A DNA stretch of 64,000 nt, from contig OZ252299.1 of assembly GCA_965250285.1 (NCBI GenBank), positions 3,648,001-3,712,000 on the forward strand, in the 5' to 3' direction. Shown one piece after another: positions 50,110 to 62,052 of this stretch. The notes below the pieces were generated by a model, which saw only the letters and a list, made by a program, of their open reading frames with translations, ran no database searches and was not told where the DNA came from. Both the position numbers and the translations under genes were made by a program. Origin of the DNA: Myxococcota bacterium. Its GTDB lineage: Bacteria; Myxococcota_A; UBA9160; UBA4427. The first letter of the stretch is position 1. The number at the start of each line of letters is the position of its first letter.

Positions 50110-51759
50110 TCAGACGCGCAGGCGAAGGTGCGCCCCGGCCAGGCCCGTCAGAATCACCACCAACGCCACGAGGCCCGGGGCCGGCAGGACGGGGACGGCC
50201 TCGGCGACCGGAACACGCTGGCTGCCGACCAGCGGAATCGTGACCGACGAAGGTCGAGCCGCGTCGAGGTACACCACGTTCGAGCTGAACTCGAAGAACG
50301 GCAGAAATCGCAGCACATCCGACTCGGGGGTGTGGCCGTTCGTCGGGTTGACGTCCTGGTCGTCGCGATTCGTGATCTCGAGCCGAATTCGATGCCCGGC
50401 CGGGATCCGACGCCCGGTGATGCTCAACGGGATCGTCAGCGTCGCGGGCGACGTGTCGGCCATCGCGCTGCCCACCGCCAACAGAATGGGCTCGTCACTC
50501 GCGGATACGTCGAACAGATGGACGTTCAGCTGATAGCGACTGCCGGTGCCTTCGACGTAGAGCGTTGCGGTCGGCTCTCCGACGACGAGCGCCTCGTCGA
50601 GGAGGGGGTCGGTCTCATAGGTCAGGACGTCGCGATTGAACGCGCTGCGAAGCGTATTGGGGTTGAAGTTCGGCGCGGTCGCCCACGTGAGGGCGCCCGG
50701 ATCGTTGACGAACGCATCGCTGGCACCGACGCTCGCGGGCGCGACGGGATCGAGCCGACTCGAAGGGCCGAGGTAGAGCGTATCGGTGGCCTGCCCCGGC
50801 GGCGGCCAGCTCGCGTACGAGACGTGCTCGTTGGTGCCCAGCAAGGCGACGCGGATCGCGTCTTCGGCGTCGATGCCCGTCGCCTCACCCTTCAAGTGGT
50901 AGTCGAACCAACGCAGGCGCAGATCGTCTCGAAAGGCCGAGTCGTTGTTCGGCGTGCCGTGTCCGCCGGTGCCCAGATAGACCATGCGCTGCGACGAGGC
51001 GGTGAGGGCCAGATGGTCGCTGACCGCGTGCGTGCCGGGCCATCGCGCATCCAACAGAGCCAGGTGGTTCTGAACCGGGATCGTGATCGACGGAAAGTTG
51101 GCGATCACCGGCCCCATGACCGCATCGAACGTCGACTCGACCAAAGCGCTCGGGTACTCGCCACCGAGCACCAATGCGGTGTCGGCCCCGGTCACACGCT
51201 CGAGACTGCCCTGGCTCACGATGTAGTCGACGAAGTTGTGGTAGGCGAAGTTGTAGGGGACGGCGGTCGCGAGCGCGTCGGTCAGCAGCACGCCCGACCA
51301 CGTCGTGTAGCCGCCGAGCGAGTTGCCCGTCATCCCGAAAGCGGCCGCGTTCATCGGCAACGTGACGCCGGCTTCGGCTTCGAAGCCGGTCAACAGCCAC
51401 GCCTTCAGGGCAACGATGTCGTTGGCGAAGTTGGGGGGCAGCCACTCGTCCGATGGCCGGTTGGTGTAGGACAGGGTGACGTACCCAAAGTCGGCGTAGC
51501 TGCCGGCCAGGCCCGAGTTCGAGTTCTTGCTCCCGCCGGCACCGTGCGCAAAGAAGACGACGGGCCAGCCGCCCGCGGGCGGGCTGCCCGTGTCGGGCCA
51601 GCGGACGTCCACATCGAGGTCGACGCCCGGCGCGACGTTGACGAACGTCGCATACGGTCCGTTGAAGGCATGTGCACTGGCGGCCCCCAAGCAGAACGCG
51701 AGCGCGGTCGCGAGCAGAGATGAAGGCAGGCCGAATCGACCCAGGGTCTTGGCCTTCAT
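50110..51759 (-). CDS. Exported CocE/NonD (S15)-like hydrolase with C-terminal sorting signal
   Basis: Signal peptide AHA, GNSLGG elbow, PepX_C-like jelly roll (GHRIRLEI), tail VPVLP-TM-RLR. Confidence 0.8.
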   Translation of the reverse strand: MKAKTLGRFGLPSSLLATALAFCLGAASAHAFNGPYATFVNVAPGVDLDVDVRWPDTGSPPAGGWPVVFFAHGAGGSKNSNSGLAGSYADFGYVTLSYTNRPSDEWLPPNFANDIVALKAWLLTGFEAEAGVTLPMNAAAFGMTGNSLGGYTTWSGVLLTDALATAVPYNFAYHNFVDYIVSQGSLERVTGADTALVLGGEYPSALVESTFDAVMGPVIANFPSITIPVQNHLALLDARWPGTHAVSDHLALTASSQRMVYLGTGGHGTPNNDSAFRDDLRLRWFDYHLKGEATGIDAEDAIRVALLGTNEHVSYASWPPPGQATDTLYLGPSSRLDPVAPASVGASDAFVNDPGALTWATAPNFNPNTLRSAFNRDVLTYETDPLLDEALVVGEPTATLYVEGTGSRYQLNVHLFDVSASDEPILLAVGSAMADTSPATLTIPLSITGRRIPAGHRIRLEITNRDDQDVNPTNGHTPESDVLRFLPFFEFSSNVVYLDAARPSSVTIPLVGSQRVPVAEAVPVLPAPGLVALVVILTGLAGAHLRLRV

Positions 51760-52853
51760 GAAGCGTTCTCCTTTCGCACCAGACGGACGCCGCCAGCGGC
51801 CAGCAGCGAGATGACCAGCGCCGCAAGCGCAGCGGGCGGCATCACGGGCACGGCGACGGCCGGCTGCGGGCCGTTCCTCGCGAGAAAGTCGAGCACGATG
51901 ACCGCCAGCTCCTCTCCCTTGTCCTCTTGCAAGAAGTGCCCTGCAGCTTCGATGATGACGTGCGGTTCGTCGGCCGCCCCGGGCACGTGCTCGATGAACT
52001 TGAGCTCGCCGCCCCAGGTGATCCGATCGCCGTCGCTGAAGGCGGTGAGGAAGGGTTTGTCGAAGCTCTGCAAGCCGACCCACGCCGCCGCGGTCTCGCT
52101 GCCAGCCGCGCCGACGAGCGTCGGAAACTCACGCGCGCCGGCGAGATAGACCTCGGCTTCATCGGGGAATGGAGCGCGGTAGGCCTCGCGGATCGCCGTC
52201 GACAGCGCCGTTTCGGTCGCGCCATCGACGATGGTCCCGGTATCGAAGACGGACACCGTCTGTGAATAGTCGAGCCACTCCGAGAAGGAGAGGCCGGGCG
52301 GGCGCGGATGTTCCGGCGGTCCGATCGTCGTCACCGGGCCGCCGGGCAGCGCCGTGTTCGCGGCGACCACGCCAGCGAACCAATCCGGGTTCTCTCCCAC
52401 CAGCCGCAGGCCAATCAATCCGCCCCAGTCCTGGCCGAAGAACGTGATCTCGGTAAGGCCCAGCTCGACGATGAGCTCGGCGACCCAGTTCGTGTGCCGG
52501 GTGTACGTGTAGTCGTCGCGACTCGTGGGCTTGTCGCTGCGACCGAAGCCGATCAGATCGGGGACGATCACGCGGTAGCCCGCCGCTACGAGCGGCGGGA
52601 TCATCTTGCGATAGAGGAACGACCACGACGGCTCGCCGTGCAGCAACAGGATTGGCGGGCCGTCGAGGGGCCCCTCGTCGACGTAGTGCATCCGAAGATC
52701 GCCATCGACCTGGATGTAGTTCGGCTCGAACGTGTACCCAGGCAGCCCGACGAACTGCGTGGCCGGCGTCCGGACGAACGGGATCGGATCGAGCGCTCGA
52801 GCCGGTGCGGCGCATGCGAACACGATGGCAACCACGAGGGGTATGTTCCGCAT
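51756..52853 (-). CDS. Haloalkane dehalogenase with signal peptide and C-terminal sorting signal
   Basis: MHYVDEGP, HGEPSWSFLYRKMIP, PDLIGFGRSDKP, QDWGG, AGHFLQEDKG; tail VPVMP-TM-RLVRK. Confidence 0.9.
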   Translation of the reverse strand: MRNIPLVVAIVFACAAPARALDPIPFVRTPATQFVGLPGYTFEPNYIQVDGDLRMHYVDEGPLDGPPILLLHGEPSWSFLYRKMIPPLVAAGYRVIVPDLIGFGRSDKPTSRDDYTYTRHTNWVAELIVELGLTEITFFGQDWGGLIGLRLVGENPDWFAGVVAANTALPGGPVTTIGPPEHPRPPGLSFSEWLDYSQTVSVFDTGTIVDGATETALSTAIREAYRAPFPDEAEVYLAGAREFPTLVGAAGSETAAAWVGLQSFDKPFLTAFSDGDRITWGGELKFIEHVPGAADEPHVIIEAAGHFLQEDKGEELAVIVLDFLARNGPQPAVAVPVMPPAALAALVISLLAAGGVRLVRKENAS

Positions 52854-53242
52854 CGAATCTCCACGTCGGCGTCGGTCGGCATGCCGCGATCCACAGCCGC
52901 GCGGGGCAGCGCGGTGCGATCGGAGCCCTGGACGGCATTGCGTCCACCCGGCTCGAAGCGATCGATGGAGAGGTCGGCGCGCGTTGCCGCAAACGACGCG
53001 CCACTGCCGTGGAGCCAAGAACCCGAAGCTACGACGACTGGCGCTTCGAACTCAAGCGAAACCTGGGGCGCGCTACGTGACGTCGAGTCGCATGGCACGC
53101 GTCGATCCATCGACCGGCAAGCACGACGCATCGCTGCGGGACGGTGCTTCGGGTGTGCGCGAGGAAGCGGCTGCAGAGCACGCGACGTGCCGATCCGGGC
53201 CGAGGATCGAACGCTCGTACGAAGCGCAGTTGGCGTCGCCAA

Positions 53243-53886: not shown

Positions 53887-55653
53887 CTAGCTCGAGGGGG
53901 CCTCGATCGGGGCCGCGGGCTCACGCCCGAATCGCGTCGGCCGCGCTGCCGCCACACCGGTCGCACCGAGCAGCCCCCACAGAATCGGACCACTGCCGAC
54001 CGGGACCGGCGGCGCGCTCGGCAGATCGACCACGAGCGTCTGCCCCGAAGCCACATCGTGCTCGACGAGCCACGGGAGCGTCGCGCCGGGGGCATAGACA
54101 CGAACCCGGTGCACCGAGCCCGCGTGGTCGCCCAGACCGAAGTGCGCAACCGGCTCGCTCCACGCGAGAAAGTGCGGGCCGCCGGTGATCTCACGCGACA
54201 TCGAGACGGCGCCGGGCTGTGCCTCGACCTCGACGCGCGCACCGATCGCGTCTCGCACACCGCCCGCGGTGCGCACGCGCACGCGGAGCCACGCGCCGTC
54301 GTTGCCCCCGTCGTTGCGCAGAAGGTGCGGTGCCTCGCCGTTCGCGACGACGAAGACGTCGAGGTCGCCGTCGTCATCGTAGTCGAACGTGAGCAGCCCC
54401 TTGCCGGCGGTCGTCGCTGCGAACCCGGCGCTTGCGGCGACGTCGGGCATGACCGTGCCCGCACCGTCGTTGCGGAAGAGACGCTGTGGATCGAAGTTGT
54501 AGGGCCCGACGAGCCCCCCGAGCCCGACGAAGCGCTGGCCGTTGGTCATCGCGAGGTCGAGGTCGCCGTCGTTGTCGTAGTCGAAGAAGGCGGCGCCCCA
54601 CCCCCAGCGCCCGTCGCGTACGCCGTAGGTATCCGTGCCGTCGCTGAAGCTGCGAAGCCCCTCGTTCAGATAGAGTCGGTTGCCCGACGTCCCCCAGTTG
54701 CAGAATTGTCCGCCGTTGCAGATGTCGAGGGGATCCCAGATCGACGTCACGAACCAGTCGAGGTCACCGTCGCCGTCGACGTCGCCCAGCGCAGCCCCCA
54801 TGCCGTTCTCGTCGGTTCCGACGCCCGCCGCGATCGTGCCGTCGGTGAAGGTGCCGTCGCCGTCGTTCCAGAAGAGGCGCGTCGTCTCGAAGTCGCTCGC
54901 GATCAGCAGATCGGGGTGGCCATCGAGGTCGACGTCCGAGAAACGCGAGGTGAACGCGAAGACGCCACCGGGGATGCCGGGCACGTCCGACAGGTCGAGG
55001 CCTGCGTCCACCGTCTCGTCATCGAAGTAGCCCGGAGCAGAAGGGCCACGGTTGCGCAGAATGCGAGCGTGGGCCTGGCTCGAGCCCCACTCACAGATGT
55101 GGAGGTCGAGCCATCCATCGCCATCGTAGTCGCCGACGGCGACGCTCTGTCCGCCGTTCAGCTCGCCGTCATCGACGTCGGCACCGCGCAGCGCCGCTTC
55201 TTCTGTGAAGTGGCCCGTTCCATCGTTGACGTAGAGCAGGTAGCGGCTCTCGCGCACCGTCGACACGAACAGGTCGAGATCGCCATCGTTGTCGATGTCT
55301 GCGAAGGCCGCTCCGTTCGTCTGCATGTCTTGCGTGAACCCGGCCAGCACCGATCCCGTCGACGAGAACGTGCCGTCACCCTGATTCAGGTGCAGCAGAT
55401 CGGTGTCGTCGAAGCGGGTCGTGAAGAGGTCGACGTGGCCATCCCCATCGACGTCGCCGGCGGCGGCGCCCCCCGTCATCCACAGCATCTCGGTGAGCGG
55501 GCCGCCGGGCGCCACCCCGTGTTGGTCGTACACGAGGCCGGCGGCGGCCGCCTCGTCGCTGAAGGTCGGCGCGGCACGAGCGGGCAACGACGCGAGCATC
55601 CCCACCACCGTGAGCACGATGGCGATCCAGCCCGCCGGCTTGCTCGATGCCAT
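53887..55653 (-). CDS. CRTAC1/ASPIC-UnbV family FG-GAP repeat protein with C-terminal sorting-like tail
   Basis: Repeated DxDGDGxxDL motifs, AIGARV, HFGLG; signal peptide ARA. Confidence 0.9.
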   Translation of the reverse strand: MASSKPAGWIAIVLTVVGMLASLPARAAPTFSDEAAAAGLVYDQHGVAPGGPLTEMLWMTGGAAAGDVDGDGHVDLFTTRFDDTDLLHLNQGDGTFSSTGSVLAGFTQDMQTNGAAFADIDNDGDLDLFVSTVRESRYLLYVNDGTGHFTEEAALRGADVDDGELNGGQSVAVGDYDGDGWLDLHICEWGSSQAHARILRNRGPSAPGYFDDETVDAGLDLSDVPGIPGGVFAFTSRFSDVDLDGHPDLLIASDFETTRLFWNDGDGTFTDGTIAAGVGTDENGMGAALGDVDGDGDLDWFVTSIWDPLDICNGGQFCNWGTSGNRLYLNEGLRSFSDGTDTYGVRDGRWGWGAAFFDYDNDGDLDLAMTNGQRFVGLGGLVGPYNFDPQRLFRNDGAGTVMPDVAASAGFAATTAGKGLLTFDYDDDGDLDVFVVANGEAPHLLRNDGGNDGAWLRVRVRTAGGVRDAIGARVEVEAQPGAVSMSREITGGPHFLAWSEPVAHFGLGDHAGSVHRVRVYAPGATLPWLVEHDVASGQTLVVDLPSAPPVPVGSGPILWGLLGATGVAAARPTRFGREPAAPIEAPSS

Positions 55654-56035
55654 CGATCCTCGCCTCGTCGTTGCGTTCCGAAGCCGCACCGGCACCCCCT
55701 CCGACGGATCCGCGCGCTGACACACGATCTTGCCATCCCGACCGCTCGGGGTGAATGCCGAGTTCGCTCGCGCGGGCGCGAGGCAGCGGGACCCTTCGAT
55801 TCGGCATAAGAAAAGAAATCCCTCGAAAGAAATACAGATGGACAGCGCGTCGGCGACGCACGTAGGATGCGGGGGCTCCCGGGTGATCGGTTTGGGAAGG
55901 CCGGCCACCTCGTCTTGCGCGGCATGCGGCTCGCGCGCGATGGCCTCGGATAGGGCGGAGCAGTCGAGGGGCTCGTGGCATGCGCCCGAGCCCGGAGAAG
56001 GGGATATTGCGATGCGATGCGGGAGACGTGCGCCC

Positions 56036-56776
56036 ATGCGGCGGGCGCACTCGACGATCGGCACGATCGTCACGGCATGCCTGTTCGCGCTTGCGATGGC
56101 AGGCAGCGCTCAGGCACTCAAGTTCGACTACCAGATCGGCAATCAGAACAGCTCGGGTGGGATCACCGTCTCGGACGGTGGCTACACGGCGACGGCCACG
56201 GGATGGGGGGGCATTTCGAATCCCCAGAACAGCCTGAACCCGACGAATCCGGGCGCGTCCGGCGCTCAGAACCTGGGCACCAACATCGGTACGGCGCTCG
56301 GCTTCGGGCGCGGCATCGGCTGCGGCACGGTCATCAGCATCAGCCAATGTGATCTCATCGCGCCGTCCGGCGAAGATGCGCTGCTCATCGAGTTCAGTGC
56401 GCTGATGGAGATCACGCGCATCTACGGCACGCTGCTCGAGAACCCCGACGACATCTCGGCGTGGAGCTGGAACGGCAGCAGCTGGGACCTGATCGGTACG
56501 GACGACTGCCCCCCCGACGGCTTCTTCAACAACTGCGGATCGTTCGGCCAGTTCGACGGCGAGGACATCGGGCACATCGACCTCATCGGTGGCGGCACGC
56601 TCCTGCCGTCGAACCCGACCGAGTATCTGCTGATCGTCGCCGAAGACACCAGCGCGAGTGCGTTTCGGCTGGGCTTCATCGAGGCGACGGTCATCCCCGA
56701 GCCGAGCACCGCGCTGCTGATCGGGGTCGGTCTGGCGGTGGCTGCTCGCGCTCGCCGGGGCCGAAGCGGCGCCTAG
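56036..56776 (+). CDS. PEP-CTERM sorting domain protein (start may be 56012)
   Basis: Signal peptide AQA; IPEPSTALLIGVGLAVAARARR. Confidence 0.88.
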   Translation: MRRAHSTIGTIVTACLFALAMAGSAQALKFDYQIGNQNSSGGITVSDGGYTATATGWGGISNPQNSLNPTNPGASGAQNLGTNIGTALGFGRGIGCGTVISISQCDLIAPSGEDALLIEFSALMEITRIYGTLLENPDDISAWSWNGSSWDLIGTDDCPPDGFFNNCGSFGQFDGEDIGHIDLIGGGTLLPSNPTEYLLIVAEDTSASAFRLGFIEATVIPEPSTALLIGVGLAVAARARRGRSGA

Positions 56777-57163
56777 CGGGCATCGAGGGGGGCCGGGCCT
56801 AACGCGCCGAGTTCGAGTTCGCTCGACTCGGCGGGGCGCGTTCGCAGCCGACCTGATCGCCCGGTTCGCGTGAAAACCCGGGAGCCGACGCGCGCTGTTG
56901 CCGCAGCGTTGCGTCGGCTCGGGGCGCGGCCCCGATCTGCACACGCTCCCGGACGGCTCACGCCGTGAGCCGCTGCGGTTGAGACGTGGCGCGCAGATTG
57001 TCCGACACAATCGGCGACCCCACACCACCCATTCAGAACACGAAGCCTTGCGGGTCTCGACCATTCGAGGGCCCGGAGGATGCTGTGCGTGCCCGGCCGG
57101 TGTCTTCGATGCACCGAATACCGGATGTGATGTGACGTTGACGTAGAGACGCTGGAGTTCCCG

Positions 57164-57736
57164 ATGATTCGTCCGCTCGCCCTTTCCCTCTGCTTGTTCA
57201 TGGCACTCGCCGGTCCTGCTTCGGCCATCACGATCTACGACGAATCGGTCGATGGTGACCTGTCGGGCGTGCCGTCTTCGCCGGATGCCCTGGCCGTGTC
57301 GGTCGGTGCGAATACGGTGATCGGCAGCGTCGGCCAGAACGGCGGCACCGGCGCGACCAACGGCAGCGACGCCGACTACTTCAGCATCACGATCGGCGCC
57401 GGCGAATCGCTCACGGCACTGACCATCGACAGCTACACGTTCGCCCCGTCGAACCCGGGTGCGAGCTTCATCGGCATCGTGGCGGGGGACGGCTTCAGCG
57501 GTCAGGGGGGCGGCAGCGTCGACAACTTCGTGCTCTTCAACGCGTTGTCGGCTGACGTGCTGCCCGGTCTCGCCGGTGGACCGCTCGGCGAAGGCACCTA
57601 CTCGTTCTGGGTGCAGGAAGTTTCGCCCACCGTCGTCGACTATCAGCTCACGGCGACGGTCGTGCCCGAGCCGTCGACCGCACTGTTCGTCGGCCTCGGC
57701 CTGTGCGGCCTCGCCGCCCGCGCGCGACGCGCCTGA
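57164..57736 (+). CDS. PEP-CTERM sorting domain protein
   Basis: GGAG RBS; signal ASA; VPEPSTALFVGLGLCGLAARARR. Confidence 0.9.
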   Translation: MIRPLALSLCLFMALAGPASAITIYDESVDGDLSGVPSSPDALAVSVGANTVIGSVGQNGGTGATNGSDADYFSITIGAGESLTALTIDSYTFAPSNPGASFIGIVAGDGFSGQGGGSVDNFVLFNALSADVLPGLAGGPLGEGTYSFWVQEVSPTVVDYQLTATVVPEPSTALFVGLGLCGLAARARRA

Positions 57737-57914
57737 GCGTTGCCCGGCGCCCGGCGCGCGCGCGCCGGGCGACGATTCGGCGCCCGGGAAACGCAGCCGT
57801 CGACGCGCAGGTGACCGGCCCCTAGGATCGGGCGGATCGGGGGCTCTGGCTCGGGTCCACCCCATGCACCCCTGATCCTGCGCGGTCGGTCGCGCTCGGA
57901 AGAGGCGAGCACAC

Positions 57915-59186
57915 ATGGTGCGATTGAGCGACCTCCCGCCCGAAGAGGCCGAACACCTGCTGGCGAAGGCGTGCGACCCCTTCGACACGCAGCCGTGGGT
58001 CACCGGTGTCCCGCTTGCCGAGCGACGGGTCTCGATCGTCACCACCGCCGGACTCCACCGAGCAGATGATGCGGCCTTCGCCGCGATCGATCTCAGCTAT
58101 CGCGTGATTCCGGGTCATGCGGCGGCCACCGATCTCACGATGACCCACTCGTCGATCCATTTCGACCGGGTCGGCTTTCGGGAAGACACGAATGTGGTGT
58201 TCCCGATCGACCGACTGCACGAGCTCGAGCGCGATGGCGTCATCGGGTCGGTCGCCGACTACCACTATTCACTGATGGGCGCCGGCTGGCCCCCGGCAGC
58301 CATCGAACCCACCGCACTCGAGCTGGCGCAGCGGCTTCGGGAGGATGGGGCGGATGCGGTCTGCCTCGTCCCCGTCTGACCGAACTGCACCCGCGCGGTC
58401 GGCGCGGTCAGCCACTACCTGGAGCGTGCCGGCATCGCGACCACGGGCATCAGCCTGGTTCGAGAGAACACCGAGCGCATGCGCCTGCCGCGTTTTCTCT
58501 GGGTGCCGTTCGAGCTGGGCCGGCCGTTCGGCGCGCCTCACGAGCCCGACTTCCAGCGCCGCGTCCTGCGCGCGGCCCTCGAGCTGCTCGAACGCGACGA
58601 TGGCCCGGTCGTTCTCGAGGACTTCCCCGACGATGCCCCCGTGGCCGTCGGCGATGGAGGCGAAGCCTGGTCATGCCCGGTCTCCTTCCAGCCGACGCAC
58701 GACGACGAGACCGAGCTCGTACGCGACACGCTCGACGAGATGGCGCAGCTCGCGCCCTGGCACGAGCTCTACACCGCACGCACGGGGCGCTCGGCGCCCG
58801 CCGCCTCGGGTCTGTCTCAGGTCGACATCGTGCGCGGACTCGGTGACCTGGCCGAGGACGAGACGGCCTCGACCGTCACCACGAACCGGCCGCTCATCGA
58901 GTGGGTTCGGCTCGGCTGTGACGACGTCCGAACCTGGTACCTCGAGGCGGCCCGCGGCCGCCCCGGCACGGCCTCGTCGACCGAGCTGAACGCCTGGTTC
59001 TGGGAGCAGACGGCCTTCGCTCGTCTGATCGCCGAGGCGGCCACGACGCTGGCACGGTCGAGCGACCCGGGCGTACAGCTCTTCGCGCGGCGCTCGATGG
59101 TTCCGCGCGCGCACATGCCAGCCTTGATGCCCGGCGTCGCGCCTTCGGCCGGCGAGCTCGTCGGCCCGGACAGGACGAAGCCATGA
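57915..59186 (+). CDS. Selenoprotein B-like protein (PrdB/GrdB family), 423 aa, Sec at TGA 58377-58379
   Basis: ORFs 57915-58379 and 58479-59186 are in the same frame; read-through gives LVPV-U-PNCTRAVG..HYLERAGIATTGIS; VTTAG and DTNVVFPIDRL family motifs. Confidence 0.88.
58385..58411 (+). promoter_or_regulatory. Candidate bacterial SECIS hairpin
   Basis: CTG-CAC-CCGCGC-GGTCG-GCGCGG-T-CAG; G-initiated loop 17 nt after the UGA. Confidence 0.65.
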
Positions 59187-60028
59187 AGATCACGCCGCTC
59201 TCCCCGGTCTTCGGCGCCGACATCGAAGACGTCGATCTCGCAACCGTCGACGATGCGGGCTTCGAACCGATCTACCGAGCCTGGATCGAGCACGGCGTCC
59301 TTCGCTTCCGAGGCCAGAGCCTCGACGACGCCCAGCTCGAGGCCTTCAGCGCGCGGTTCGGCCCACTCGAACGAATCCCCTTGAAGCTGACGCCCGAGCA
59401 GGAGAAGCGGTTCGCGAGTCTGTACGTGACGCCGTTGTCGAACATCACCATCGAAGGTCGACCCATCGGCGGCCTGGGCAATGCCGAGGCCAACTGGCAC
59501 TCGGACATGACGTACCTGCCCGTCCCACCGACTGCGAGCGTGCTGCTGAGCGTCGAGATCCCGGAAGAAGGTGGGGACACGCAGTTCAGCTGTCAGCACG
59601 CCGCACTCGATCGGTTGCCCGCTGCCCTGCGAGCGCGAGTGGATGGCCTGCGCATCAAGCACGACGCGTCGCACACCAGCATCGGAGACCTCCGGGCGGG
59701 CTTCGACGCGATCAGCGATCCGCGCGCGGTGCCCGGCGCTACGCACCCCGCCGTCCGAAGCCACGAAGAGAACGGTCGCGATGCGCTCTACCTGGGCCGC
59801 CGCGAGTTCGCCTACGTCGAAGGTCTCCCGCTCCCCGAGAGCGAGACCTTGCTCGATGAGCTCTGGCAATACGCAGCCCTGCCCGAGCACACGTGGACCC
59901 AGCAGTGGCGCGTCGGCGACGTGATCGTCTGGGACAACCGTCGCGTGCTCCACCGTCGCGACGCGTTTCCGAACCACATGCGTCGGATGCTGCGGCGTTG
60001 CCAGGTGCTCGCGCGCGAGGCGCCCTGA
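59183..60028 (+). CDS. TauD/TfdA family Fe(II)/2-oxoglutarate dioxygenase
   Basis: WHSDMTY (HxD), GGDT.F, HP.VR.H, WDNRRVLHRR; ATGA overlap with selenoprotein stop. Confidence 0.92.
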   Translation: MKITPLSPVFGADIEDVDLATVDDAGFEPIYRAWIEHGVLRFRGQSLDDAQLEAFSARFGPLERIPLKLTPEQEKRFASLYVTPLSNITIEGRPIGGLGNAEANWHSDMTYLPVPPTASVLLSVEIPEEGGDTQFSCQHAALDRLPAALRARVDGLRIKHDASHTSIGDLRAGFDAISDPRAVPGATHPAVRSHEENGRDALYLGRREFAYVEGLPLPESETLLDELWQYAALPEHTWTQQWRVGDVIVWDNRRVLHRRDAFPNHMRRMLRRCQVLAREAP

Positions 60029-60054
60029 CGGCCCGGTTGCGGCAGAATCTCAGC

Positions 60055-62052
60055 ATGTATGATTCTCACTCGCCGTCCGATGAAGGCGCGCGCGAGCGGT
60101 CGCCCTTCGAGCATTTTGCAGCGAGCGCCGCCTTCGTCCTGGTCGCGTTCGCGCTCGGCGCATGCGCAAGACCGGCCGACCCGGCCTTCGACGCCAGCGT
60201 GAGCGGCGCAGAAGCGCGACGGGCTCGATCGGCGCCGACGACTCCCGAGACGCGCGGGGTCGACGTGCTCGCCACGGCGGCCTTCGAAGAAGGCGTGCCC
60301 GGGCGCACCTTCCCGGTCGAGGTGACCGTCGCCGGCGGCGATCACGGCGAGCTGCTCTTCGAGTTCAACGAAACGCACTCACCCGGATCGGGCGCGATGT
60401 GGCGCGCCTCGGAGCTCTCGGCCGCGGTCCAGGCAATGCTCGCGACGAGCGTGCCCCCCGAAGGCCTCGAGATCACGTACTCGGTCGAGGGCGACCTCGA
60501 TGGTCCGAGCGCCGGGGCGCTGCTGACGATCGGCCTCATGGCGGCGATGCAGGGGCACGCCCTGCGCCCCGACGTCACGATGACGGGCACGATCAACCCC
60601 GACGGGTCGATCGGTGCCGTCTCGAAGATCCCCGAGAAGGTGGTCGGTGCGGGCAACGAGGGCATGAAGCTCGTGCTGATCCCGGTGGGCACGCGCCGCG
60701 GCCTGGATGGCCAGGGCCCCGACGTCGTCGAGGTGGGGCGTCGAGTCGGTGTCGAGGTGCGCGAGGTCGCCGACATCTACGAGGCCTATGAAGCCATGAC
60801 CGGGGTCGCATTCGTCGGTGCGGGCGAGGCCGACGACGTACCGACGTATGGCGGCGCGTTCGCTCGGCGCTTCGACGAGAAGTCGGCCGAGTGGCGTGCG
60901 CGCTTCGAGCGCAACGAGGTGGCGCTCATCGAGATCGACCCGAAGCTGCTCGCGCGATTCGGCTCGTTCGCGGCGATGGAGCGCGCCCAGGCCGAGCTGA
61001 AGGCCGCGAACCTGCTTCGCGCCGCCGGCCACCACTCGGCGGCCTACAACACGACGGTGACTGCGACGCGCACGATTGCGGCCGCGCGCCTCGTCCCCGA
61101 GGCCCTCGAGCGGCTCGACGAAAGCGGCGCGGCCTCGGTCGAGGCGTGGCTCGAGCGCGGCGGACACGTCGAGCAGGATCTGATCGCAACGCTCACGCGC
61201 ATTCAGCAGGTCGAGCCACGGACCTTCAACGACCTGACCGCGCTTGCGATCATCTACGCAACCCTGCTCGAGGGCTTCTCGCTCGAGCGGAGCGCGGGGC
61301 GGCTGTTCGACCGCGCGCGCGAGCCCGGCCGCTCCGAGGCCGAAGTCGAAGCCCTGCTCGCCGAAGCGGTTCGTCGCGAGGTCGAGGCGGCGGCCTTCAG
61401 CCTCTTCGCGATCGACTACCTCGACTTTCGAGCGGCGCTCGGCGACGGCGGCCGCGCGGTCGAGGTCGACCTCGATCGGGTCGCCGACCTCCTGCTCCAG
61501 GCGGCCGACGCGAACCTGATGCTCTTCGAGTCGATCACGCTCGCGACCCTGGCCCAGGCGAGCGGCCTGCCGCTCGAAGTCATGCGGAAGCGCTTCGAGT
61601 CGCAGTCGCGAACGTACCGCGAGGTCATGGCCGTCGAGGCGTTCCGCTCGCGCATCGATCCTCACATCAGCGATCCGCGACACCGGGCGCTCGCGCGCGT
61701 CGGCCTCGACCTCTGGCGCTACGTCGGCGCCGCCGAGCTGCTTGCCACGCACTACTCGCTGTCGGTGCGGGTCGACCCCGAGACGCTCGCCGTCGAAGCG
61801 TTCGCGGTGACGCCTCCCCTGGTTGCGATGTTCGAGAGCTCACAGAAGCAGATTCACCGCGCGCTCTACGCCATCGACGAGCTCGACATCGATCCGCAGC
61901 TGGTGCTCGCGATCAACGAGGTCGGCATGGAGGCAGCTCGAAGCGCCGCGGCCCTCGGCAACGGCCCGATGATGATGCGCAGTCTGCGGGCGATGTGGAT
62001 CACGCGCGTGATCACCGAGGCCTTCCTGCTGGGTCTCGAACCCGACACCTGA
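60055..62052 (+). CDS. Lon-type (S16) protease-domain lipoprotein lacking the AAA+ module
   Basis: DGPSAG...MTGTINPDGSIGAVSKIPEK Ser-Lys dyad; LGAC lipobox; helical C-terminal half. Confidence 0.8.
   Translation: MYDSHSPSDEGARERSPFEHFAASAAFVLVAFALGACARPADPAFDASVSGAEARRARSAPTTPETRGVDVLATAAFEEGVPGRTFPVEVTVAGGDHGELLFEFNETHSPGSGAMWRASELSAAVQAMLATSVPPEGLEITYSVEGDLDGPSAGALLTIGLMAAMQGHALRPDVTMTGTINPDGSIGAVSKIPEKVVGAGNEGMKLVLIPVGTRRGLDGQGPDVVEVGRRVGVEVREVADIYEAYEAMTGVAFVGAGEADDVPTYGGAFARRFDEKSAEWRARFERNEVALIEIDPKLLARFGSFAAMERAQAELKAANLLRAAGHHSAAYNTTVTATRTIAAARLVPEALERLDESGAASVEAWLERGGHVEQDLIATLTRIQQVEPRTFNDLTALAIIYATLLEGFSLERSAGRLFDRAREPGRSEAEVEALLAEAVRREVEAAAFSLFAIDYLDFRAALGDGGRAVEVDLDRVADLLLQAADANLMLFESITLATLAQASGLPLEVMRKRFESQSRTYREVMAVEAFRSRIDPHISDPRHRALARVGLDLWRYVGAAELLATHYSLSVRVDPETLAVEAFAVTPPLVAMFESSQKQIHRALYAIDELDIDPQLVLAINEVGMEAARSAAALGNGPMMMRSLRAMWITRVITEAFLLGLEPDT

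Follow-up and report, generated by a model that had tools for sequence, protein, structure and literature searches.

The window analysed here, a 64,000-nucleotide stretch of Myxococcota DNA, contains a 154-aa ORF (57915-58379) that ends with LVPV-TGA, and from this codon the same frame stays open into a 235-aa ORF (58479-59186). Are these two genes, or one gene whose TGA encodes selenocysteine (Sec), and what would the product of such a gene do? The original prediction took both ORFs as a single frame encoding a 423-aa PrdB/GrdB-like selenoprotein. When the frame was re-read, no other stop was found; with the TGA decoded as Sec it yields the 423 residues, with U155-P-N-C158 inside the motif U-P-N-C-T-R-A, and the terminal stop is the TGA at 59184-59186. 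The features of the locus are listed in Table 1.

Table 1. Features of the selenoprotein locus, in window coordinates
Feature	Position	Strand	Evidence
Shine-Dalgarno-like AAGAGG, 9 nt ahead of ATG 57915	57900..57905	+	Read from the sequence
Predicted selenoprotein gene, 423 codons, one internal TGA read through	57915..59186	+	Frame; confident structure model that spans the junction
PrdB-like alpha/beta catalytic domain, residues ~32-240	58008..58634	+	TIGR04483 match over 32-226; identity to PrdB
In-frame TGA, putative Sec codon (U155)	58377..58379	+	Alignment to PrdB Sec codon; TGA kept in homologues
Cys158, second residue of UxxC	58386..58388	+	Invariant in one alignment, nearly invariant in another
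Bacterial SECIS hairpin (stem of 6 bp, loop GGUCG of 5 nt), 17 nt downstream of the UGA	58391..58407	+	Covariation; fits published model
C-terminal all-helical domain, residues ~250-410	58662..59144	+	No family or fold match; absent from clostridial PrdB
TauD/TfdA-family Fe(II)/2-oxoglutarate dioxygenase, whose start overlaps the stop codon of the selenoprotein gene (ATGA)	59183..60028	+	Pfam TauD, 214.9 bits

Decoding of the in-frame TGA

To follow the TGA across the family, homologous loci were aligned at column 155. In a first set, where 112 loci were searched and 110 cover the column, TGA was found at 118 of 119 places, and the single other codon adjoins a run of N. The codon was also TGA in 80 of 80 loci of a second clade and in all 35 metagenome loci that cover the column, which brings the total to 233 of 234 homologous places, with conserved codons around it. 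U155 aligns with the in-frame TGA of the annotated prdB genes of P. acidaminophilum (WP_148296006.1) and E. gilvus (WP_081633597.1), whose products have Sec in this column and a UxxC motif, as the window protein does. The same column holds TGC (Cys) in a short-form homologue on a Roseomonas plasmid, the one Cys homologue verified at the DNA level, so that the expected alignment of U with Sec or Cys of homologues is borne out.

Cys at column 155 also appears in 19 of 21 full-length database homologues. We considered these entries as Cys orthologues and rejected this, because TGA was present in every one of the 80 genome loci retrieved with 11 of these entries; some of these 'Cys' homologues may therefore be Sec displayed as Cys. 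A scan with query protein P0006 returned one locus, with TGA.

A reading error was also looked for: the TGA is invariant, with no variant letter, in contigs of three public runs, which belong to one study and are possibly the source of the window DNA itself. TGA terminates both the selenoprotein gene and the neighbouring gene, and is thus a normal stop in this genome.

The stem-loop predicted 3' of the TGA was found (CCGCGC-GGTCG-GCGCGG), and its support comes from covariation rather than stability. Taken alone in this GC-rich DNA, the hairpin is not more stable than shuffled sequences (z -0.53, -0.90 and -1.02), and the minimum-energy fold holds it in a 36-nt piece only, being absent from the 54- and 84-nt pieces; stability was therefore dropped as evidence for a SECIS element. 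In an alignment of the window with 94 distinct long-form homologues (95 sequences), the six stem pairs are paired in 93.0% of 570 cells and 52 cells have changed on both sides, some of this covariation being accounted for by amino-acid changes. None of 500 shuffles scored as high on four of five covariation measures, and 2 of 500 did so on the fifth. Pairing was far lower in slid registers than in the true one, a comparison that favours the true register to the extent that the structure was defined on the window sequence. In the second clade, whose stem sequence is different, the same columns pair in 65-66 of 66 sequences, and the six columns pair 6/6, again with different sequence, in both PrdB-like paralogues of the window genome; the Roseomonas Cys homologue keeps 3 of 6 pairs. 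As genome background, all six pairs occur at 545 of 126,692 TGA triplets (0.43%).

The bacterial SECIS model, in the portion of PMC13188914 consulted, has a loop of 3-9 nt with G in the first two loop positions, a stem of 4-16 bp, a distance of 16-37 nt from the UGA and an energy of at most -7.5 kcal/mol. With its 5-nt GGUCG loop, 6 bp, 17 nt and -13.9 kcal/mol (58385-58420), the window hairpin lies within this model. We accept it as a SECIS element because it is conserved and covarying, not because it is stable.

The window genome (6.25 Mb, 95.4% complete) has all four Sec genes that were sought: tRNA-Sec (selC) is present, and selA, selB and selD score 492, 317 and 281 bits, all over cut-off. 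selA also passed in 70 of the 72 carrier genomes tested. The four genes are scattered over the chromosome, unclustered (selC 2050420, selB 4609741, selA 5009195, selD 5312234), and selD sits within a 781-codon open frame, which suggests a fusion.

That the TGA is a real stop (leaving two genes or a pseudogene), a sequencing error or a sign of an alternative genetic code is scarcely credible, although gene callers do give the halves as separate proteins and the hairpin alone is not unusually stable. A real stop would not explain the near-invariant TGA among conserved codons, the SECIS covariation, a break that falls inside one domain or the Cys codon of a homologue; the normal use of TGA as a stop speaks against an altered code, and the contigs without a variant against an error. 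Sec machinery, TGA conservation and SECIS covariation all agree with a single Sec gene split by gene callers, and the TGA at 58377-58379 is very likely translated as Sec.

The consequences for annotation are as foreseen in one part only. Both halves are present in the protein collection as separate, unnamed proteins, but the 154-aa half scores 48.1 bits against the Pfam GRDB cut-off of 22 and would usually be named by annotation rather than reported as hypothetical. The correction is routine: a gene cut in two in databases, with its second half 'hypothetical'. The family counts 2,360 representatives at E<=0.001, the best 150 of which are mostly half-length pieces cut at the UGA, and in the sample taken of the phylum 30 of 201 genomes carry it.

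A PrdB-like selenoprotein, probably apart from the reductase complexes

The full-length protein passes the Pfam family GRDB (PF07355; 45 bits, gathering threshold 22), while all NCBIfam reductase models stay under their cut-offs. The PrdB model TIGR04483 is the best of these (107.6 of 300 bits); the Grd reductase B models give 55.5 of 602, 61.1 of 800, 63.9 of 775 and, for TIGR01918, 60.7 of 65.45 bits, their match being limited to positions ~268-421. What the window protein has in common with GrdB/GrdF/GrdH (PF07355) and FarB is the C-terminal, Sec-bearing part; the N-terminal ~260 residues and the UxxCxxC motif of the GrdB type, an architecture of ~430 aa, are absent from it. Identity to P. 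acidaminophilum PrdB is 37% over 201 columns (residues 33-231). Authentic PrdB is, however, ~240 aa long, its motif reads AG-U-GTC where the window protein has PV-U-PNC, and its SECIS sequence differs.

AlphaFold, run with Cys replacing Sec, gave a model that is confident across the junction (mean pLDDT 92.6, pTM 0.92), in which the TGA break separates a strand from a helix within a single alpha/beta domain. Foldseek gave no match for the whole model at E<=0.001, and its best VIA match (Z 9.3, rmsd 3.5 over 142 residues) is to generic alpha/beta sandwiches. The C-terminal helical domain was also modelled alone (pLDDT 94.0); its invariant residues are E275, D337, Y342, E344, W361, W363, T366 and P397. 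No Pfam family was found in this downstream half and Foldseek returned no match at E<=0.001, the best VIA match having Z 5.2 and rmsd 6.1 with 113 residues aligned; this lack of a fold match does not establish a new fold. A sequence search against solved structures gave no match.

The long form is already known and has been published as a selenoprotein since 2005 (PMC1088965). In the portions of the marine surveys consulted, 42 'Proline reductase PrdB' selenoproteins are listed for the Sargasso Sea, where the family ranked third in abundance among known selenoprotein families (PMC1088965), and 235 such sequences are listed in the GOS survey (PMC2398784), with UxxC and an in-frame TGA as in the window protein. 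Inspected by eye, two entries in the supplement of PMC1088965 share both the motif and the C-terminal extension with the window protein, AACY01078217 with 18 of 22 residues around Sec matching and AACY01068648, so the selenoprotein family as such is not new. The portions consulted of both surveys name the family proline reductase by homology and make no mention of an extra domain, a missing PrdA or a dioxygenase neighbour. We found no literature on any of these three points in a search that had most subscription journals outside its range.

The window genome encodes two shorter PrdB-like paralogues of ~300 aa (~120800-121706 and 3939015-3939899) that lack the helical C-terminal domain; each has an in-frame TGA (U-P-D-C and U-P-V-C, respectively) and a 6/6 paired hairpin at the same spacing. 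The former adjoins a tRNA-Phe, on the border of an island with lower GC3. In alphaproteobacterial genomes the long-form gene was also seen as a tandem pair, each copy having its TGA and hairpin (L011:4774-7218, L037, L038, L039, L043, L061, L064 and L078); a large part is deleted from within the first copy in L010. Carrier contigs L054, L139 and L188 bear the labels Nitrosopumilus, Klebsiella pneumoniae and Bifidobacterium, probably through mis-binning or misnaming, and were excluded from taxonomic claims.

Authentic prdB lies in a prdC-prdA-prdB-prdD-prdE-racemase cluster, and none of these companions was found for the window gene. No member of the PrdA/GrdE partner family PF09338 was found in the window genome, 95.4% complete as it is, and none over cut-off in 72 and 28 other carrier genomes, many of them incomplete, which gave one sub-threshold match; the same search found PF09338 in both control records. 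With tblastn, E. gilvus PrdA, PrdE and racemase gave nothing in the window genome at E<=0.01, and the whole prd cluster retrieved the three PrdB-like paralogues and weak matches only. In the same genome PrdC (TIGR04481) scored 38.4 against a cut-off of 490 bits and GrdA (PF04723) 19.3 against 22, and proline racemase (PF05544) gave no match. We also observed that on the P. acidaminophilum plasmid NZ_CP007453.1 a PF09338 match lies at 258999-260984, just upstream of prdB, where the plasmid table has no gene.

These results indicate that the window protein is very probably not a D-proline or glycine reductase subunit. The PrdB/GrdB-like assignment of the original prediction therefore stands as homology, but by family cut-offs and gene context it does not extend to the function of those subunits, and the family name 'proline reductase' is unsupported by gene context.

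The adjoining dioxygenase and a possible function

The dioxygenase gene that overlaps the end of the selenoprotein gene encodes a protein whose H106, D108 and H257 are invariant in 16 aligned members, in keeping with the HxD...H triad that it has in common with TauD/TfdA and FrbJ-like dioxygenases. Its best solved relatives are TfdA/RdpA-like and TauD enzymes, and against the taurine dioxygenase model it stays under cut-off (145.8 of 313 bits). The window genome has 13 other TauD-like genes, which shows that this family is common in such hosts.

Linkage was examined in both directions. Where 1,000 nt or more of downstream sequence was available (7 of 86 and 7 of 80 loci fell short and were dropped), a co-oriented dioxygenase gene lies within 2.6 kb of the selenoprotein gene in 14 of the 23 loci whose identity is 55% or higher, in 4 of 19 at 50-55%, in 0 of 37 below 50% and in 0 of 73 of the second clade. 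Conversely, 58 metagenome loci of the dioxygenase subfamily, near-duplicates included, were inspected; after one weak match and 13 loci with less than 600 nt upstream were dropped, 35 of the 44 informative loci have the long selenoprotein gene directly upstream, and 4 of the 13 short ones still show its 3' end. In a tree of 146 rows built with FastTree, two separate clades (support 100) have this dioxygenase subfamily next to the selenoprotein, while in part of the window's own clade and in three Rhodospirillales-type loci an FrbJ-like dioxygenase takes its place (closest to FrbJ, 5eqn, E 2e-46). The paired hosts are labelled Myxococcota, Acidobacteriota, Hydrogenedentota, Spirochaetota and Actinomycetota, and their flanking genes differ. 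Clustering of the neighbourhoods of 173 + 58 loci found, besides the dioxygenase, no recurring gene that names a substrate. The dioxygenase is thus a conserved partner gene, in a pairing that is clade-limited, and the two proteins probably share a pathway.

In three loci (L048:6959-9666, L049:7270-9956 and L045:7259-12499) three consecutive dioxygenase genes come after the selenoprotein gene, one of FrbJ-like type and two near the taurine dioxygenase cut-off, a hint of sulfonate-type substrates.

Taking into consideration that no partner subunit was found and that a dioxygenase gene adjoins, the protein likely has a different job from proline reductase. The interpretation we favour with moderate confidence is that one UGA/SECIS gene encodes what is likely a stand-alone Sec reductase, not a PrdB subunit, and forms a two-gene unit with the dioxygenase. 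In the proline and glycine reductases, according to the portions consulted of PMC9908766, PMC13188914 and PMC10838667, a carbonyl-bearing proprotein polarises the C-N bond so that the Sec of subunit B can attack it; the betaine-enzyme GrdI and FarE lack the pyruvoyl-forming cysteines, and the FarB Sec is predicted to attack the C-F bond directly. A precedent for a pyruvoyl-free protein B thus exists (PMC10838667, in the portion consulted), although betaine reductase and FarB keep a second subunit and none was found for the window protein.

By analogy with this family chemistry, Sec155 would be the nucleophile that attacks a small substrate at an electrophilic carbon or heteroatom, releasing a leaving group, and Cys158 would resolve the adduct as a selenenylsulfide, to be re-reduced by the cellular thiol system. 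Since there is no pyruvoyl subunit, the substrate would need a bond that is already polarised, as in onium, sulfonate/phosphonate-type or halogenated compounds, which is what has been proposed for betaine reductase and FarB. The helical C-terminal domain might supply the substrate pocket, the role of PrdA in clostridia; neither Foldseek nor VIA gave a fold match that ties this domain to substrate binding. Hydroxylation of the same small substrate by the dioxygenase would precede or follow the selenoprotein step, and the 9 of 23 closest loci that lack a dioxygenase neighbour count against this scheme. The specific bond-cleaving chemistry assigned to Sec155 is a speculative proposal, possible rather than probable.

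Other accounts of the protein were weighed against this one. A genuine D-proline (or glycine/betaine) reductase B subunit with a partner too divergent to detect would fit TIGR04483 as its best family match, its identity to authentic PrdB with Sec aligned, and the JGI name 'D-proline reductase (dithiol) PrdB' on some full-length homologues. We regard this as very unlikely: the PrdB score is far below its cut-off, PF09338 was not over cut-off in any of 101 carrier genomes while the control worked, PrdC and GrdA did not pass and proline racemase was not found, the chain has an extra domain, and its partner gene encodes an oxygen-dependent enzyme. The linkage itself could reflect inherited synteny or co-transfer, with the role of the selenoprotein unrelated, as the linked loci group together on the tree, several close relatives have lost the linkage, and TauD-like genes are numerous in such genomes; this is unlikely in view of its occurrence in two separate clades and in hosts of five labelled phyla with changing flanking genes.

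It is also conceivable, if on balance rather doubtful, that the selenoprotein is a general thiol/redox housekeeping enzyme that repairs or protects the dioxygenase or removes oxidised sulfur, the two enzymes having no carbon substrate in common. UxxC is a redox motif of the thioredoxin type, and the portion consulted of the 2005 survey (PMC1088965) places PrdB among thiol-dependent redox selenoproteins; the three paralogues of the window genome lie in unrelated neighbourhoods, most family members have no dioxygenase neighbour, and two dioxygenase subfamilies as neighbour suit a support role as well as a pathway. Yet the modelled fold is PrdB-like alpha/beta and not thioredoxin-like, the characterised relatives act on small molecules, and a single dioxygenase subfamily is linked in 35 of 44 loci.

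Returning to a stand-alone Sec reductase paired with a dioxygenase, a broader reading, to which we give somewhat less than an even chance, is that the abundant marine 'PrdB' could be no proline reductase but a separate class of single-chain selenoenzyme with its own, structurally unmatched substrate domain. In the lineage of the window genome it would form, with a dedicated dioxygenase, a mobile two-gene module that breaks down aerobically some widespread marine metabolite with a heteroatom. If true, this would be an undescribed use of selenium. Since one dioxygenase subfamily is so tightly linked, there is a defined pair of enzymes with which the role of these marine selenoproteins becomes testable.

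Some further observations concern the genes around the locus. Upstream of the selenoprotein gene lie PEP-CTERM proteins (56422-57736 and 55730-56776, with a Pfam match for 57164-57736), and similar tails, VPV/VPA followed by a hydrophobic and a basic segment, end the nearby genes 50110-52083, 51756-53018 and 53887-56073. On the other side, 59893-62052 encodes a Lon S16 C-terminal protease domain, with no ATPase match, behind a likely signal peptide.
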